Of a stretch of 5,354 nt of DNA, positions 1 to 5,354 are shown one piece after another. The translations under genes were made by a program, and so were the position numbers. The stretch lies in IMG/VR virus record IMGVR_UViG_2740892006_000002, one strand, 5' to 3'. Below the pieces are notes generated by a model. It was not told where the DNA came from. It did no database searches and saw only the letters and a program-made list of their open reading frames with translations. Source of the stretch: a virus (taxonomy: Duplodnaviria > Heunggongvirae > Uroviricota > Caudoviricetes). Positions within the stretch are counted from its first letter, which is position 1. Each line of letters begins with the position of its first letter.

Positions 1-807
1 ATGGGTTCATGTGCAGCTCCATCAGCAAAAAGGGATGATAAGTTTATCACCACCGACTATTTGCAACAGTGCCCGTTTGCCTTAGGGAAAACAGGAAGCA
101 CCGTTGCGAATGATAAAGCAGTTGGATGGAACTGGAGTAGCGGAGCCTATAACGCAACTATTAGTGGTGCATCAACGTTAATTATTCATTTTTATATGGG
201 AGAAGGAAGTTGTCCTGCAGCTCAGTTTCGGATTAATTATAAAAATGGCGGTATTTTTTATCGTTCAGCCCGTGATGGTTATGGTTTTGAAGCCGACTGG
301 TCCGAATTTTACACCACCACCAGAAAACCTTCAGCAGGAGATGTTGGTGCACTGCCGTTATCTGGTGGTCAACTGAATGGTGCACTGGGTATCGGAACAT
401 CCAGTGCTCTTGGCGGTAATTCGATTGTATTGGGTGATAATGACACGGGCTTTAAACAAAATGGCGATGGTAATCTGGATGTTTATGCTAATAACGTCCA
501 TGTTATGCGCTTTGTCTCCGGAAGCATTCAAAGTAATAAAACCATAAATATTACAGGGCGTGTTAACCCCTCGGATTACGGTAACTTTGATTCCCGTTAT
601 GTGAAAGATGTTCGACTTGGTTCACAGCAATATTATGGAGTGAACAACTGGCGAACATGGAATTTCCAGTGCCCTTCAGGTCATGTATTGTCTGGTATTA
701 ATGTTCAGGATACAGGGTCTAACTCTGCCGATAATATAGCGGGTGTTTATTACAGACCCGTTCAAAAGTATATAAATGGCACCTGGTATAATGTAGCGAG
801 CGTTTAA
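1..807 (+). CDS. Phage tail fiber protein, C-terminal variable portion (5'-partial; ORF open to the window edge)
   Basis: Frame is open from position 1 to TAA at 805-807. Gly/Asn/Ser-rich composition typical of fiber tips. Shares the motif ALGGNSI(V/T)LGDNDTG(F/I)KQxGDG and the C-terminal tip motif QKYI(N/S)G(T/N)WYNV with the minus-strand fiber ORF. Its stop overlaps the start of the downstream tfa (TAAtATG), as in stf-tfa operons. Confidence 0.85.
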
Positions 808-808
808 T

Positions 809-1342
809 ATGATGCACTTAAAGAACATAAAAGCGGGTAATGCTAAAACACTGGAACAGTATGAGTTAACAAAGAAACACGGAGTTATCTGGCTTTACTC
901 TGAGGACGGAAAAAACTGGTATGAGGAAGTGAAAAACTTTCAGCCAGACACCATAAAGATTGTTTACGATGAAAATAATATTATTGTTGCCATAACCAAA
1001 GATGCCTCCACACTTAACCCTGAAGGTTATAGCGTCGTTGAGATTCCTGATATTACCGCCAACCGGCGTGCTGACGACTCAGGTAAATGGATGTTTAAAG
1101 ATGGCGCAGTCATTAAACGTGTATATACCGAAGAAGAGTTGCGCCTACAGACGGAAAACCAGAAAAAAATATTATTACAGCAGGCCAGAGAAAAAACGCA
1201 GTTCTGGCAAACACAGCTTACTTTGGGGATTATCACTGATTCAGACAGACAGCAACTGATGAACTGGATGCGATACGTGCAACAGGTTGAGACAACTGAT
1301 ACCTCGGTTCTTCCTGTAACATTCCCGGAACCACCAGAATAA
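809..1342 (+). CDS. tfa: Tail fiber assembly protein (Tfa family chaperone)
   Basis: 177 aa starting [11 protein letters not shown]...[23 protein letters not shown]...ITANRRAD, which is the conserved N-terminal half of enterobacterial Tfa proteins. Start codon lies 1 nt after the fiber stop. The N-terminal ~95 residues are highly similar to the minus-strand paralog at 1373-1900, and the C-terminus diverges. Confidence 0.9.
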
Positions 1343-1343
1343 G

Positions 1344-1368
1344 AAAAGGCCCGTACGGGCCTTAATTT
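1344..1368. terminator. Candidate bidirectional hairpin between the convergent tfa genes
   Basis: AAGGCCC-GTAC-GGGCCTT (7-bp GC-rich stem 1346-1352 / 1357-1363, 4-nt loop) lies between the tfa stop (1340-1342) and the tfa' stop (1373-1375). Flanking T/A runs are short, so efficiency is uncertain. Confidence 0.45.
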
Positions 1369-1372
1369 GTTG

Positions 1373-1900
1373 TTATTCTGGTTTCTGTGGCCATTCAGGC
1401 TTTGCAGTATCCACATGGCTGACCATAACGCTGTAGCGTTCCCATGATTCCAGTCGTGTGCGTTCCTCATCAGTTGCCATATTCAGTCTGACAGCACGTT
1501 CCAGCGGTTGAATCACAGACTCCGCTTCGGAAAGCAAAGCGGCTTTTTGTAACTCTGCCTGCTGTTGCAGTTCCTGTTTTGTATATTCCCGCTTTACTAC
1601 TTTACCATCCAGAAACTTCCAGTTTCCCGAGATATCGGCGCGACGGTTGGCTGTTATATTCGGTAACTCAACAACACTTAACCCGTCAGGGTTAAGTGTT
1701 GATACGTCTTTCTCAATACAACGAATAATCCCCTTCTGGTCATAAGCTATTTTTAAAGTATCATCCTGAAAGTTTTTTAATTCGTCATACCAGTTTTTAC
1801 CGTCTTCTGTATATAGCCAGATAACGCCAGCTTTTTTCGTAAGCTGATACTGCTCAATGGTTTTGGGGTTTCCGGCGGTAATATTTTTCAGATGTTGCAT
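1373..1900 (-). CDS. tfa: Tail fiber assembly protein, alternative cassette (Tfa')
   Basis: 175 aa starting [36 protein letters not shown]...ITANRRAD. An AGGAGA Shine-Dalgarno sits about 7 nt upstream of the ATG (reverse complement of 1904-1909). The C-terminal tail ...[15 protein letters not shown]...PEWP resembles the lambda-Tfa-type C-terminus seen again at 4116-4385. Confidence 0.9.
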
Positions 1901-1915
1901 ATATTCTCCTGATGG

Positions 1916-2884
1916 CTATGCCTGTTCAACGTTATACCAGTTACCAGAAATGTATTTTTGTAGTGGTCGTGACACCATCCAGTCATCTCCATCAACCTCA
2001 CCAATAATTTGCAATCCTGTTGTCACATGACCATTACCTGGTTCGCAAAGTCCTCCGCGATATAATGTGTCAGAACGTCTGCCTCCCAGACGCACATTTC
2101 TGATAAAAGAACTATTCAGGTAATCATTTAAGTTTGACCCCCAGCACCCACCAAATATATTTCCATCGGTGTTATAACGGACGCCACCCGCAATAAGAGC
2201 ACCCGGTGAAATAAAGGATTTATCGTTCGGGTTAAACTGCCATAAAGCATCATTACCGCCATCGCCACGCATATGAATACATGGAACCGGAAATCCATAC
2301 TGTTCTGTCAGTAAATACCCAAAGCTGACCGCGCCGGGATAGCCCTGTCCATTGCGAATGGACAAGCCCTTAACTATCGGCACGTAAAGACCACCAGGAG
2401 TGGGATTCCAGGCAAACTGCGTCTGAACAAAAGGCGCGGTGGCATTATTCAACTGGTCTGCAAATGCGCCACTTCCATCAGGAATTATTCCCTGATGAAT
2501 ATATGCAACCCGCTTATAAAAATCAGCAGATGCGGGTTGAAGCCCAAATGCCAGTTGTCCATTTGAATAGAATAAAAGGACACCGTCGCCGCCCTGTTTA
2601 ATACCAGTGTCGTTATCTCCGAGAGTAATGGAATTACCGCCCAGTGCGTTATCTGTACCAAGCGCCAGCCCACCATCAATTTTGGCCCCGTGGCTGACAG
2701 ATATAGCACCTGTTCTCAGATTTATAGCGAATGGCCTTAATGGGCCGATATCACCGTTTTCGCCTTGTCCTTCAGCCGTCGGAATGAAATGAAGAAAATC
2801 TTCTGAACGACGGAAAATAAGACCGAAGGCATCATTGAAAATTCGCAGCGCATTCACCGTGCCAATTTTCAGTTCTCCGGTCAT
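1916..2884 (-). CDS. Alternative tail fiber variable segment (Sv'-like cassette); frame stays open upstream to about 2947 through the crossover site
   Basis: 322-aa ORF with the same glycine-rich motif (ALGGNSITLGDNDTGIKQGGDG) and C-terminal QKYISGNWYNV tip as the + strand fiber. It is followed 16 nt downstream by tfa' with its own SD. My translation upstream of the first ATG stays in frame (…NLGLQETVNKAGNAVQRSGDK-MTGELKIG) across 2930-2955, as expected for a promoterless cassette that becomes fused to a constant fiber part after inversion. Confidence 0.85.
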   Translation of the reverse strand: MTGELKIGTVNALRIFNDAFGLIFRRSEDFLHFIPTAEGQGENGDIGPLRPFAINLRTGAISVSHGAKIDGGLALGTDNALGGNSITLGDNDTGIKQGGDGVLLFYSNGQLAFGLQPASADFYKRVAYIHQGIIPDGSGAFADQLNNATAPFVQTQFAWNPTPGGLYVPIVKGLSIRNGQGYPGAVSFGYLLTEQYGFPVPCIHMRGDGGNDALWQFNPNDKSFISPGALIAGGVRYNTDGNIFGGCWGSNLNDYLNSSFIRNVRLGGRRSDTLYRGGLCEPGNGHVTTGLQIIGEVDGDDWMVSRPLQKYISGNWYNVEQA

Positions 2885-2929
2885 TTTATCGCCGGAACGC
2901 TGAACGGCGTTACCAGCCTTGTTTACCGT

Positions 2930-2955
2930 TTCCTGTAAACCGAGGTTTTAGATAA
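2930..2955. other. Gin/Pin/Cin/Hin-type inversion crossover site (pix/gix-like), right end of the invertible segment
   Basis: TTCCTGTAAACC-GA-GGTTTTAGATAA: 26 bp made of two imperfect 12-bp inverted half-sites around a central GA, closely matching the recalled gix/cix/pix consensus. It lies between the 5' end of the silent fiber cassette and the invertase start (3010), which is the canonical position. Confidence 0.7.
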
Positions 2956-3009
2956 TGGCGGTTTCTGGCCTGCATGGCATGATTTGTGCTTTTGGACGGG
3001 AGATTCAGC

Positions 3010-3252
3010 GTGCTGATTGGCTATGTAAGGGTATCAACAAATGACCAGAATACAGATCTGCAACGAAACGCTCTTGTTTGTGCAGGATATGAACAAATAT
3101 TTGAAGATAAATTAAGCGGAACAAGGACAGGCCGACCTGGATTAAAACGTGCTTTAAAGCGCCTTCAAAAAGGTGACGCACTGGTTGTCTGAAAACTGGA
3201 CTGACTGGTTCACTGTATGCGGCATCTTGTCGTGCTGGTGGTGGAAGCCTAG
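3010..3252 (+). pseudogene. pin: Serine DNA invertase (Pin/Gin/Hin family), truncated and decayed
   Basis: GTG start at 3010 with GGGAGA SD 6 nt upstream. The first 60 codons (VLIGYVRVSTNDQNTDLQRNALVCAGYEQIFEDKLSGTRTGRPGLKRALKRLQKGDALVV) match the invertase N-terminus, including the catalytic Ser in YVRVSTNDQ. TGA at 3190-3192 replaces the expected Trp of VVWKLDRLGRS, followed by in-frame stops at 3202-3204 and 3250-3252 and several substitutions (*KLD*LVHCMRHLVVLVVEA*). The whole C-terminal catalytic/HTH portion is missing; the frame runs into a tfa 3' end. Confidence 0.85.
3025..3100. promoter_or_regulatory. Candidate Fis-dependent recombinational enhancer retained inside the invertase 5' remnant
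   Basis: In Hin/Gin/Cin systems the enhancer lies within the first ~100 bp of the invertase coding sequence with two Fis sites roughly 48 bp apart. Two G-N13-C 15-mers with AT-rich centres occur here at 3031-3045 (GTATCAACAAATGAC) and 3080-3094 (GTGCAGGATATGAAC), centres 49 bp apart. Assigned by eye only. Confidence 0.3.
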
Positions 3253-3385
3253 AAAAAGTATCGGGTGTTACTGAACCGTGTTGATACATCAACTGCACCT
3301 GATATTGAGTGGCCTACGAACCCTGTCAGGGAGTAATCATTGGGATTATGCCGCAGCACGTCTTAAGCAAGAACGTGCTGCGGTT
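3244..3385 (+). repeat. Direct repeat copy A (tfa 3' end plus hairpin), fused in frame to the invertase remnant
   Basis: About 140 bp, roughly 90% identical to 4293-4436 at a constant 1049-bp offset. Encodes [29 protein letters not shown] (stop 3334-3336), then a perfect 11-bp-stem hairpin CCGCAGCACGT-(11 nt)-ACGTGCTGCGG at 3351-3383. Confidence 0.8.
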
Positions 3386-3399
3386 GGATGCTATTTTTT
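3351..3399 (+). terminator. Hairpin plus T-run downstream of the tfa-like 3' end (candidate intrinsic terminator)
   Basis: Perfect 11-bp stem at 3351-3361 / 3373-3383, then TTTTTT at 3394-3399. The T-run is about 10 nt from the stem and also encodes the last Lys codons of the minus-strand methyltransferase, so terminator function is uncertain. Confidence 0.3.
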
Positions 3400-4059
3400 C
3401 CCTGAAGCGGAAAACATTACTACAGTACCTTGAACCTTGGTTTTAACATTCTCGAAATGCTCTGAGAGTATATGTGTTAAGCCTTCTTCGGAATCTTTTG
3501 TGTTTGAAAAGATGCCTTTCTGATTGTAAATGCGCATCAGTTTTTGACCGAAGCTATTGTGCACAACGCCGTCACCAAGAATTGTGGCTCCGTATAGAGT
3601 TCCATCGTCAGTTAAGGCCTGCGCCGCATTGCGTATTACACAGCTTTTTGTAGATATATTTCCAGGCAGGCAGTGAAGAAGGTAAAACATGGAAATGGAA
3701 TCAAATTGACCATGTAACGCCGCGGGATAAGGTTCAAAAACATCATGGCTAATTTTATGTTTAATTTTTGATTCCCCAGCCCTTGTAGATGCCGCGTTCA
3801 GGCTAGCTTCGTTCAAATCCATTAAAGATATCAGACTACTCTCAGGTACGTGAGTAAGGTAAAACCCAGTTCCAACACCAATATCCAGATGGTTGTTACC
3901 TACATGTTCCAGAAAGTGTGGAAGAAGGTGTTCCTTTGTAGGACATCCCCATGCAAGCCGATTTGATACTCCCAAAACCCACCAGTCATAAAGCTTTAGG
4001 GTAAGTGGTGTGTAAATTTTAGCCCCATCATCTGTGTTTTTTTTCATTGATTTCACCAT
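3391..4059 (-). CDS. Class I SAM-dependent methyltransferase (prophage moron)
   Basis: 222-aa ORF with a Rossmann-fold motif I, HLDIGVGTGFY, followed by an acidic residue after the next strand (LISLMDLNE) and a later FDSISMFYLLHCLP segment. No DPPY/NPPY-type amino-MTase motif. An alternative start at the second ATG (4047-4045; MKKNTDD...) is preceded by a GGTGA SD-like sequence. Confidence 0.85.
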   Translation of the reverse strand: MVKSMKKNTDDGAKIYTPLTLKLYDWWVLGVSNRLAWGCPTKEHLLPHFLEHVGNNHLDIGVGTGFYLTHVPESSLISLMDLNEASLNAASTRAGESKIKHKISHDVFEPYPAALHGQFDSISMFYLLHCLPGNISTKSCVIRNAAQALTDDGTLYGATILGDGVVHNSFGQKLMRIYNQKGIFSNTKDSEEGLTHILSEHFENVKTKVQGTVVMFSASGKK

Positions 4060-4088
4060 GTTATAGTTTTATTTGTGAATTAAATCAA
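4060..4088 (-). promoter_or_regulatory. Candidate sigma70 promoter for the methyltransferase
   Basis: On the minus strand: TTGATT (4088-4083), a 17-nt spacer, then TATAAC (4065-4060). The -10 abuts the first ATG (4059-4057), which would imply transcription starting at or after that codon and translation from the second ATG. Judged by eye, weak. Confidence 0.25.
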
Positions 4089-4115
4089 TTATGGCGATGA
4101 ATTACAAGGGGTTAA

Positions 4116-4385
4116 ATGCTGCCGCAGCATAGCGATATTGAAATAGCCTGGTATGCTTCGATACAGCAGGAGCCGAATGGCTGGAAGACCGTCACCACAC
4201 AGTTCTACATCCAGGAATTCAGTGAGTATATTGCGCCACTGCAGGATGCTGTAGATCTGGAAATCGCAACGGAGGAAGAAAGATCGTTGCTGGAGGCATG
4301 GAATAAATATCGGGTATTGTTGAATCGTGTTGATACATCAACTGCACCTGATATTGAGTGGCCTGCAAATCCTGTCAGGGAGTAA
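4116..4385 (+). pseudogene. tfa: Tail fiber assembly protein, C-terminal fragment (lambda Tfa-like), N-terminal half missing
   Basis: The 89-aa ORF ends ...[54 protein letters not shown], closely resembling the C-terminus of lambda Tfa as I recall it. There is no conserved Tfa N-terminal region; an AAGGGG SD sits about 5 nt upstream of the ATG at 4116. The 3' part is repeat copy B. Confidence 0.7.
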
Positions 4386-4436
4386 TCATTGGGATTATGC
4401 CGCAGACACGTCGTATGCAGGAACGTGCTGCGGTTA
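4293..4436 (+). repeat. Direct repeat copy B (tfa 3' end plus hairpin)
   Basis: Matches 3244-3385 at a +1049 offset (+1050 after a 1-nt insertion in the hairpin arm). The W codon TGG at 4299-4301 corresponds to TAG at 3250-3252 in copy A. The hairpin here is imperfect (CCGCAGACACGT...ACGTGCTGCGG). Confidence 0.8.
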
Positions 4437-4499
4437 GTTTGTGAGCTTTCGATAGTGGTTGTTATTTTTGCCCTTATTTGTTCCGGAGGCCATGGTTCA

Positions 4500-4670
4500 A
4501 TGGTCCGTCTGCCCCCTGTGGTGATGTCAGCAAAATCAGCCACTGCGCGAACCACAATAGCCCGGGAAGATGCTGAAGATCACCAGGTAAAGCTGTCAGC
4601 GCAGAAACTGGAAGAACTGCTCGCATCAATGGTTAAGGATGAGGTTGATCGCAATGATGGGATTTATTGA
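4500..4670 (+). CDS. Hypothetical small protein (56 aa); uncertain
   Basis: In-frame ATG at 4500 with GGAGG (4485-4489) about 10 nt upstream, giving MVRLPPVVMSAKSATARTTIAREDAEDHQVKLSAQKLEELLASMVKDEVDRNDGIY. The ORF-track start at 4389 lies inside repeat B and is unlikely. No family recognised. Confidence 0.25.
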   Translation: MVRLPPVVMSAKSATARTTIAREDAEDHQVKLSAQKLEELLASMVKDEVDRNDGIY

Positions 4671-4765
4671 CGTCAGCGAGAGCAGAAGGAAGAACTGAAT
4701 AACCTGAATGATTTACGCTCAATCAGAGCGATGGCGATTAGCGGCAATCACGCTCGATAAAATTA

Positions 4766-4790
4766 ACCCCGGTGATCATCCGGGGTTTTG
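4766..4790. terminator. Bidirectional intrinsic terminator between the small + ORF and the convergent Rha-family gene
   Basis: ACCCCGG-TGATCAT-CCGGGGT stem-loop (4766-4786) followed by TTTT on the + strand, and by a T-rich stretch (TTAATTTTAT) on the minus strand. It lies just downstream of the minus-strand stop at 4797-4799. Confidence 0.6.
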
Positions 4791-4796
4791 CATTCA

Positions 4797-5354
4797 TTAA
4801 AACCGCATCAACCTTTCCACCAATTGTTCTTTACGGGCAACGATCCACCCATGTTGCTCCAGATAAAATTTAAACCGTTCCAGCGTGCATACCATCGCAT
4901 CGGCGGGGACTTTTTCTGTGAACTCGACCTGACCGTGTTTATCGAAGTGGATCAGTAATGCGCATCCATTATTTGGGGCGGGGGAGTTTTGTGCTGCAGG
5001 AGGACGTTTGTGGAGTTCTTCTTCCATTGCGTTAAATTTTTCAATGTAAGCTTCTTTTAGTCTGGCTGCTTTTTTGCCAGTAAATCCCATTACGAGGAAC
5101 ATGAAGCCGTCTTTTGTGATCAGGTAGCATCGTGATTCACGTTCTGCGCCGTTGCCAATTTCGACAGTCTGAACATCGGCCGAAAAGTTGGCTGATGTAA
5201 ATTCGGGAGAGCAGTCGAGTGTGTCAATCTTAGCTAAAACGTGTTTATGTTGTTTATCGAAGTAGTCGGCAACAGCTTGAGAGGTGGTAACCAGGCGACC
5301 ATCTTTGAAAAAGACTTTTGGTGACTCGTTAGAAAAAGTTATAGCTGTATTCAT
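4797..5354 (-). CDS. Rha-family phage regulatory protein (antirepressor-like N-terminal domain) with an uncharacterised C-terminal domain
   Basis: 185 aa; the N-terminal region (...VTTSQAVADYFDKQHKHVLAKIDTLDCSPEF...YLITKDGFMFLVMGFTGKKAARLKEAYIEKFNAMEE) matches the pRha-domain pattern as I recall it. The start codon is at the window edge (5352-5354), so upstream signals cannot be seen. Confidence 0.7.
   Translation of the reverse strand: MNTAITFSNESPKVFFKDGRLVTTSQAVADYFDKQHKHVLAKIDTLDCSPEFTSANFSADVQTVEIGNGAERESRCYLITKDGFMFLVMGFTGKKAARLKEAYIEKFNAMEEELHKRPPAAQNSPAPNNGCALLIHFDKHGQVEFTEKVPADAMVCTLERFKFYLEQHGWIVARKEQLVERLMRF

Follow-up and report, generated by a model that had tools for sequence, protein, structure and literature searches.

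A gin-type invertase pseudogene beside a still-inverting tail-fibre switch in prophage Phi4 of Escherichia coli ST131

The DNA analysed here (the window; 5,354 nucleotides, from the IMG/VR virus record IMGVR_UViG_2740892006_000002, assigned to the Caudoviricetes) matches E. coli ST131 chromosomes such as those of JJ1886 and EC958 at 99.9% identity over positions 74-5354, with the match starting at base 74 in JJ1886 and in other ST131 genomes. The host element is the lambdoid prophage Phi4 of ST131, a pandemic clone, located at ompW beside the trp operon; the window is the right end of the prophage, and the invertase stub with which this work is concerned lies at the right edge of the Phi4 invertible tail-fibre segment (Table 1). 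Phi4 looks defective, with IS elements and truncated tail genes. In JJ1886, the part upstream of the window (L001 1-9800) has a truncated tape-measure gene and a partial C40 peptidase gene, and its lom-like gene is split by ISEc12 (IS21-like).

Table 1. Features of the Phi4 right end (window positions)
Feature	Position	Strand	Remarks
IS26 end (terminal inverted repeat and tnpA start)	1..73	-	100% match to 'IS6-like element IS26 family transposase', thousands of plasmids
Tail-fibre gene stf, allele A variable C-terminal part	74..807	+	Part of the 941-aa Stf WP_023363168.1 in JJ1886; within the invertible segment
tfa allele A (tail-fibre assembly gene)	809..1342	+	Pfam Caudo_TAP, E=6e-32; WP_000972097.1
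tfa allele B (tail-fibre assembly gene)	1373..1900	-	Pfam Caudo_TAP, E=1e-33; WP_001164137.1
stf allele B, alternative variable C-terminal part	1916..2942	-	Frame open to the crossover site; WP_071550361.1
Invertase-proximal 26-bp crossover site, TTCCTGTAAACCGAGGTTTTAGATAA	2930..2955	+	Inverted repeat with L001 11770-11801; inner half-site swapped in orientation B
Invertase leader	2956..3009	+	RBS GGGAG at 2998-3002; collinear with the Mu gin leader
Invertase stub, gin-type part of the mosaic	3010..3192	+	GTG start, 60 codons, TGA replacing Trp61
Putative Fis-dependent recombinational enhancer, by gin homology	~3025..3130 (approximate limits)	.	Fis sites in the gin/hin coding region
Dead invertase codons 62-78, pinE-like part of the mosaic	3193..3241	+	TGA 3202-3204 replaces Arg65
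tfa 3' end, fused in frame	3242..3336	+	TAG 3250-3252 replaces Trp; natural stop 3334-3336
Class I SAM-dependent methyltransferase cargo gene	3391..4059	-	Pfam Methyltransf_12/23/25; in the module replacing the invertase 3' end
Second tfa 3' fragment	4116..4385	+	Pfam Caudo_TAP profile positions 75-130; direct repeat partner

The segment has the architecture of a G-, C- or P-segment switch. Two inverted 26-bp crossover sites surround it: the invertase-proximal site lies in the window, where the annotated G-segment boundary of phage Mu maps to position 2943, and its left-hand partner, TTCTCGTAAACCGAGGTATTCGATAA, is located upstream of the window, as seen in JJ1886, S7 and the Esc strains. The segment offers two alternative fibre C-termini with cognate chaperones, each fusing in frame with the constant part, so that Stf is a protein of 941 aa in orientation A (that of the window) or of 968 aa in orientation B, both intact and identical through residue 629; in either orientation the stf gene is followed by its own chaperone gene, tfa. 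PGAP is inconsistent for orientation B (S7, L002 1048-3954; also L014 and L015), the intact 968-aa fibre gene being sometimes called as a truncated pseudogene plus an unannotated gap, while the same 968-aa sequence is annotated as an intact protein in Esc10. A third crossover-like sequence, AATGTTAAAACCAAGGTTCAAGGTAC, at 3425-3450 on the minus strand, agrees with the sites in the core AAACCAAGGTT alone; its arms are unlike those of a crossover site by eye, it lies within the conserved methyltransferase gene, and it was treated as a chance match. Beside the segment there is no functional invertase gene, only a 60-codon stub.

Translation of 3010-3336 begins VLIGYVRVSTNDQ and proceeds through 60 unbroken codons that include Ser9 of the RVST motif, which bears out an earlier note, made from the sequence alone, that had described a Shine-Dalgarno sequence, a start codon and 60 codons with the catalytic serine. 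The GGGAG motif of the leader coincides with the gin ribosome-binding site annotated in the phage Mu record. The TGA in place of an expected Trp codon, also described there, is at codon 61 (3190-3192), where Mu gin, the EC958 Phi1 and Phi2 invertases, the invertase sequence L004, the pinE-like sequence L008 and the stub of strain MB30 (see below) all have TGG; as the note had it, two more in-frame stops follow, a TGA at codon 65 (3202-3204) and a TAG at codon 81 (3250-3252), ahead of the TAA (3334-3336) that is the terminal tfa stop of the fused frame. The first 191 nt of the stub are 96.3% identical to phage Mu gin (184/191), and the gin-type part is 94-95% identical to the EC958 Phi1 invertase. 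The 60-aa product is recognized by Pfam Resolvase (PF00239; E=2.9e-15) over profile positions 2-69 of 145 only, and HTH_7 (PF02796) was absent from the stub product in the Pfam search, the frame entering tfa sequence from 3242; the intact paralogs cover Resolvase positions 2-144 and also have HTH_7. Homology thus places the stub in the Gin/Hin/Cin/Pin family, but it has neither the complete Resolvase catalytic domain, though Ser9 is present, nor the C-terminal HTH_7 of the Fis/enhancer-dependent serine invertases, and it is a pseudogene of the family and not a functional member. Lacking roughly half of the catalytic domain and all of HTH_7, with the frame continuing into tfa, the stub cannot encode an active recombinase, in agreement with the earlier note. 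That note had allowed that sequencing errors or programmed recoding might undo this conclusion; neither could restore the enzyme, since beyond codon 78 the frame consists of tfa and no longer of invertase sequence. In the RefSeq annotation (PGAP), 3010-3189 is a pseudogene for a partial 'recombinase family protein' with its C-terminus missing, and 3253-3336 is a 'tail fiber assembly protein' pseudogene without its N-terminus. An ST131-specific G-to-A change at window position 3089 turns Cys27 into Tyr in the stub; it lies at the centre of a candidate Fis core (3080-3094), which is now more AT-rich.

Alignment with invertase genes, as proposed in the earlier note, mapped the stops and placed the breakpoint. 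Identity to gin and to the Phi1 invertase falls sharply, to 50-53%, at about 3200. The differences that the earlier note had seen ahead of the tfa sequence are present, but they are not the substitutions of a decaying gene, since most of 3201-3241 is pinE-like: over 3202-3246, 38 of 45 positions (84%) are identical to the pinE-like invertase WP_000904992.1 (L008) versus 24 of 45 to the Phi1 invertase, and 3193-3245 is 83% identical to the pinH fragment of K-12. These two matches rule out locally accelerated decay of a gin-type gene as the origin of 3201-3241, and an origin from tfa is ruled out by an identity of ~25% in every register tried; agreement with the Phi1 invertase as high as the 24/45 found was reached in only 4 of 100,000 shuffles. 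Because 3201-3241 matches a pinE-like allele at 84% and gin/Phi1 at only 50-53%, the stub is, on these alignments, a mosaic of two invertase alleles, of gin/Phi1 type (94-96%) upstream and of pinE/pinH type (83-84%) downstream of a boundary at 3190-3205, the two being joined within the common stretch CTGGT-GTCTGGAAACTGGA. Read in this way, the boundary implies a past recombination between invertase alleles of different prophages.

The second joint in the stub, that between invertase and tfa, falls at 3241/3242, with identity to tfa setting in at ~3236-3242 and codon 78 in frame with tfa; the earlier note had correctly seen an in-frame passage into a tfa 3' end, and its position of around 3244 is refined to this exact switch. 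Microhomology had also been suggested at the breakpoint. The sequences at the joint have just 2-4 nt (TGG) in common, which is indistinguishable from chance and too little to sustain a microhomology-mediated fusion. The sequence beyond the joint belongs to a tfa-methyltransferase-tfa module, in which two tfa 3' ends with their downstream hairpins form a direct repeat (3239-3385 / 4288-4435, ~89-90% identical) flanking the methyltransferase gene. The module is found in many E. coli, including K-12 at ~581 kb, where it has the layout of window 3242-4440 (a tfa 3' end, an opposite class I methyltransferase gene and a second tfa 3' end) and is 96-98% identical to the window at the tfa end; the K-12 module, which we take to be tfaD-ybcY-tfaX of the DLP12 prophage, adjoins a packaging-gene remnant, whereas that of the window adjoins the invertase stub.

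The same fusion, 98% identical, is found in strain MB30 (L003 5107-5433), in another prophage remnant at the ybhB-bioA locus, and ~167 records carry this variant. In the MB30 copy, codons 61 and 81 are TGG and codon 65 is, as in ST131, TGA; this copy is annotated as a 64-aa protein, WP_001378636.1. It follows that the fusion and the stop at codon 65 (CGA-to-TGA) are old and common to both copies, and that the stops at codon 61 (TGG-to-TGA) and codon 81 (TGG-to-TAG), both G-to-A changes specific to ST131, came later, in the ST131 copy only.

The loss of the enzyme had led the earlier note to describe the switch as apparently locked in cis. Taken literally this does not hold, as the segment flips. 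Among complete genomes, two 566-nt queries, each consisting of one inner arm plus the stub-tfa junction, found 145 with orientation A and 239 with orientation B, every one of them carrying the same stub; the sum, 384, agrees with the ~380 records that hold the stub at at least 99% identity. JJ1886 and S7 have stubs that are 100% identical next to segments in opposite orientations that are exact reverse complements of each other (0 mismatches); the exchange point lies inside the core GTAAACCGAGG of the 26-bp site. Siblings Esc5 and Esc10 are identical over 12.4 kb save for a precise inversion of 3,065 bp, again exchanged within the 26-bp site. Both orientations therefore occur, with exchange in the site core, as in a switch of this kind.

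It is very improbable that these inversions are driven by RecA-dependent homologous recombination between short inverted repeats and not by a site-specific invertase. An imperfect inverted repeat of 32 nt does flank the segment, but only 84% of its positions match and no exact stretch in it is longer than ~12 bp, a length considered too short for efficient RecA-dependent exchange; moreover, the exchange always falls within the core of the 26-bp invertase site, and inverted reads were common enough in one culture to give a contig of their own. The latter observation comes from the account of Phi4 in Forde et al. (2014; PMC4134206), in which PacBio sequencing yielded an alternate 12.7-kb contig with the segment inverted within one culture. 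It also bears on the suggestion that the orientation polymorphism is a frozen relic, the inversions predating the decay of the invertase and the switch having been locked since. The stub is old, as the 98%-identical fusion in the bio-locus prophage of other lineages attests, but the stubs are 100% identical in both orientations, the sibling assemblies of Esc5 and Esc10 differ by the inversion alone and, in that account, both orientations were present in a single EC958 culture; a frozen relic is thus scarcely credible. PCR-confirmed inversions have also been described in a preprint for an invertase-less BP-4795-like prophage, which may or may not be Phi4, in ST131 isolates with further prophages, P88-like and phiE255-like, that do carry an invertase (bioRxiv 10.1101/2022.05.07.487787). 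Because both orientations are found with identical stubs, the inversions are precise and a single culture is heterogeneous, we conclude that the switch is orphaned, not locked, and still inverts. The stub-bearing genomes EC21Z-078 and E138, in which a DNA search found no invertase paralog, are both in orientation B, the majority orientation, an outcome that is consistent with an enzyme in trans but, at n = 2, of no statistical weight.

The window's own strain carries a further alteration. Its IS26 is inserted in the stf variable part, inside the segment that inverts, and interrupts fibre allele A; the junction at 73/74, ~215 bp from the position of the left site in JJ1886, was found in no complete E. 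coli genome of the collection. Arrival of the IS26 may have been accompanied by a deletion or rearrangement in which the left site was lost and the switch disabled in this strain, and no complete genome in the collection shows the sequence upstream of the junction. A simple insertion, however, would leave both sites in place, a segment longer by ~0.8 kb could still invert and no deletion is visible in the window; a disabled switch in this strain is, on balance, rather unlikely. The left site lies outside the window, so the Phi4 copy of the window's strain may be altered or disabled.

Since the stub cannot encode an active recombinase, inversion must rely on an invertase supplied in trans. The earlier note had expected dependence on a Pin/Gin-type enzyme of another prophage and had suggested a search of the host genome for intact paralogs; the paralogs found, their near-identical sites, the occurrence of both orientations and the published account of Phi4 all agree with this expectation. 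EC958 has two intact invertases, those of Phi1 (a P2-like prophage; 199 aa, WP_000905061.1) and Phi2 (190 aa, WP_000904922.1), each with Resolvase and HTH_7 domains (Pfam), and most ST131 chromosomes have 2-5 invertase-like places. Of the Phi1 crossover sites, one agrees with its Phi4 counterpart at 26/26 positions and the other at 25/26; the Phi2 site that our scan located has many more mismatches to those of Phi4. In their treatment of this locus, Forde et al. (2014; PMC4134206) described the truncated Phi4 invertase, EC958_1582, as missing the HTH domain and proposed the Phi1 invertase as the likely trans-acting enzyme for Phi4. We infer that Phi4 most likely depends on the intact Phi1 invertase, acting in trans, and that the Phi2 enzyme is the less likely source.

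DNA invertases of this family require an enhancer in cis, bound by Fis (PMC2724282). That of hin lies in the N-terminal coding region, ~100 bp from hixL (PMC2724282; PMC3798978), and gin has three Fis sites inside its coding region, ~550 bp upstream of the mom start (PMC3378877), a distance that places these sites near gin nt 110. In the stub, gin nt 1-191 are preserved at 96% identity and at the native spacing to the crossover site, and candidate G-N13-C cores are present at 3031-3045 and 3080-3094. Because the gin 5' region with its Fis sites is kept, at this identity and spacing, the stub probably still provides a cis enhancer that lets a foreign invertase flip the segment. More tentatively, and with somewhat less than an even chance of being right, the first ~190 nt may persist as a Fis enhancer that makes the Phi4 switch an enhancer-plus-sites 'satellite' of the Phi1 invertase; if so, host-range switching of two unrelated co-resident prophages, Phi4 and Phi1, would be coupled. 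Of 5,426 complete E. coli genomes, ~540 contain the fusion, which occurs in two or more prophage contexts; such a spread would fit the retention of a working orphan switch.

Persistence of the 5' region could also mean that the 60-aa N-terminal peptide is produced and acts in its own right, perhaps by interfering with intact invertases. The ribosome-binding site, the start codon and 60 codons are indeed intact, and the 64-aa version is annotated as a protein in MB30-type genomes. Against this, the additional ST131 stop, which shortened the frame from 64 to 60 codons, looks like neutral decay, less than half of a catalytic domain is judged unlikely to fold or dimerise, and conservation is equally explained by recency and by an enhancer acting at the DNA level. 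We regard a functional peptide as exceedingly improbable.

The explanation that best accounts for the data, and in which we have high confidence as a whole, is that of an invertase pseudogene remnant beside an intact, still-inverting switch that is worked by an enzyme in trans, with the stub as a probable cis enhancer. An old rearrangement joined invertase codon 78 in frame to the tfa 3' end of a tfa-methyltransferase-tfa module; the remainder of the catalytic domain was lost in this way, and the DNA-binding domain with it. The switch has kept its two 26-bp sites and two complete fibre/chaperone allele sets and inverts still. The Phi1 invertase (or, less likely, that of Phi2) would act in trans on the near-identical Phi4 sites, and the 5' region of the stub would probably supply this enzyme with its cis enhancer.

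Phi4 of EC958 has the same locus, EC958_1582, with a 241-nt stub that is 100% identical (1487945-1488185) and with the same 26-bp sites and ~3.1-kb invertible segment as the window; the window's strain differs in the extra IS26 within the segment. The G segment of Mu with gin, and the systems of P1 (cin), e14 (pin) and Salmonella (hin), resemble Phi4 in having a constant fibre 5' part, two variable parts with chaperones and 26-bp sites. In all of these the invertase gene borders the segment on the outside and carries the enhancer near the start of its coding region; the Phi4 stub has this position and, probably, this enhancer, and the spacing from site to start is identical in Mu gin and in the stub. 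Unlike in Mu, P1, e14 and hin, however, the Phi4 invertase gene is cut short after 60 codons and joined to tfa debris, the enzyme being encoded elsewhere in the genome. The pinH pseudogene of K-12, beside ypjA and present in most E. coli, is likewise an invertase remnant; both of its ends are missing, and at two loci its neighbours are ypjCB-type genes on one side and ypjA on the other, the annotation showing neither fibre nor tfa genes in the vicinity.

The truncation, the inversion of Phi4 and the proposal of an enzyme in trans are already published (Forde et al., 2014, PLoS One 9:e104400; PMC4134206), and current understanding is unchanged, because the essentials have been out since 2014. 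The sections of that paper drawn on here do not deal with the gin/pinE mosaic, the tfa fusion, the individual stops or the enhancer argument; what is added to the 2014 account is the gin/pinE mosaic and the retained gin 5' region with its putative Fis enhancer. The locus is also relevant to annotation, as both the stub and the alternative fibre fragments are routinely annotated wrongly and spurious contigs arise here in assembly. The effect on the biology of ST131 is probably small, because Phi4 looks defective and no invertase-tfa fusion was found in deposited phage genomes. Phi4 nevertheless provides a clear natural example of an inversion switch without an enzyme of its own, running on one borrowed from another prophage, and shows how prophages sharing one genome can interact.
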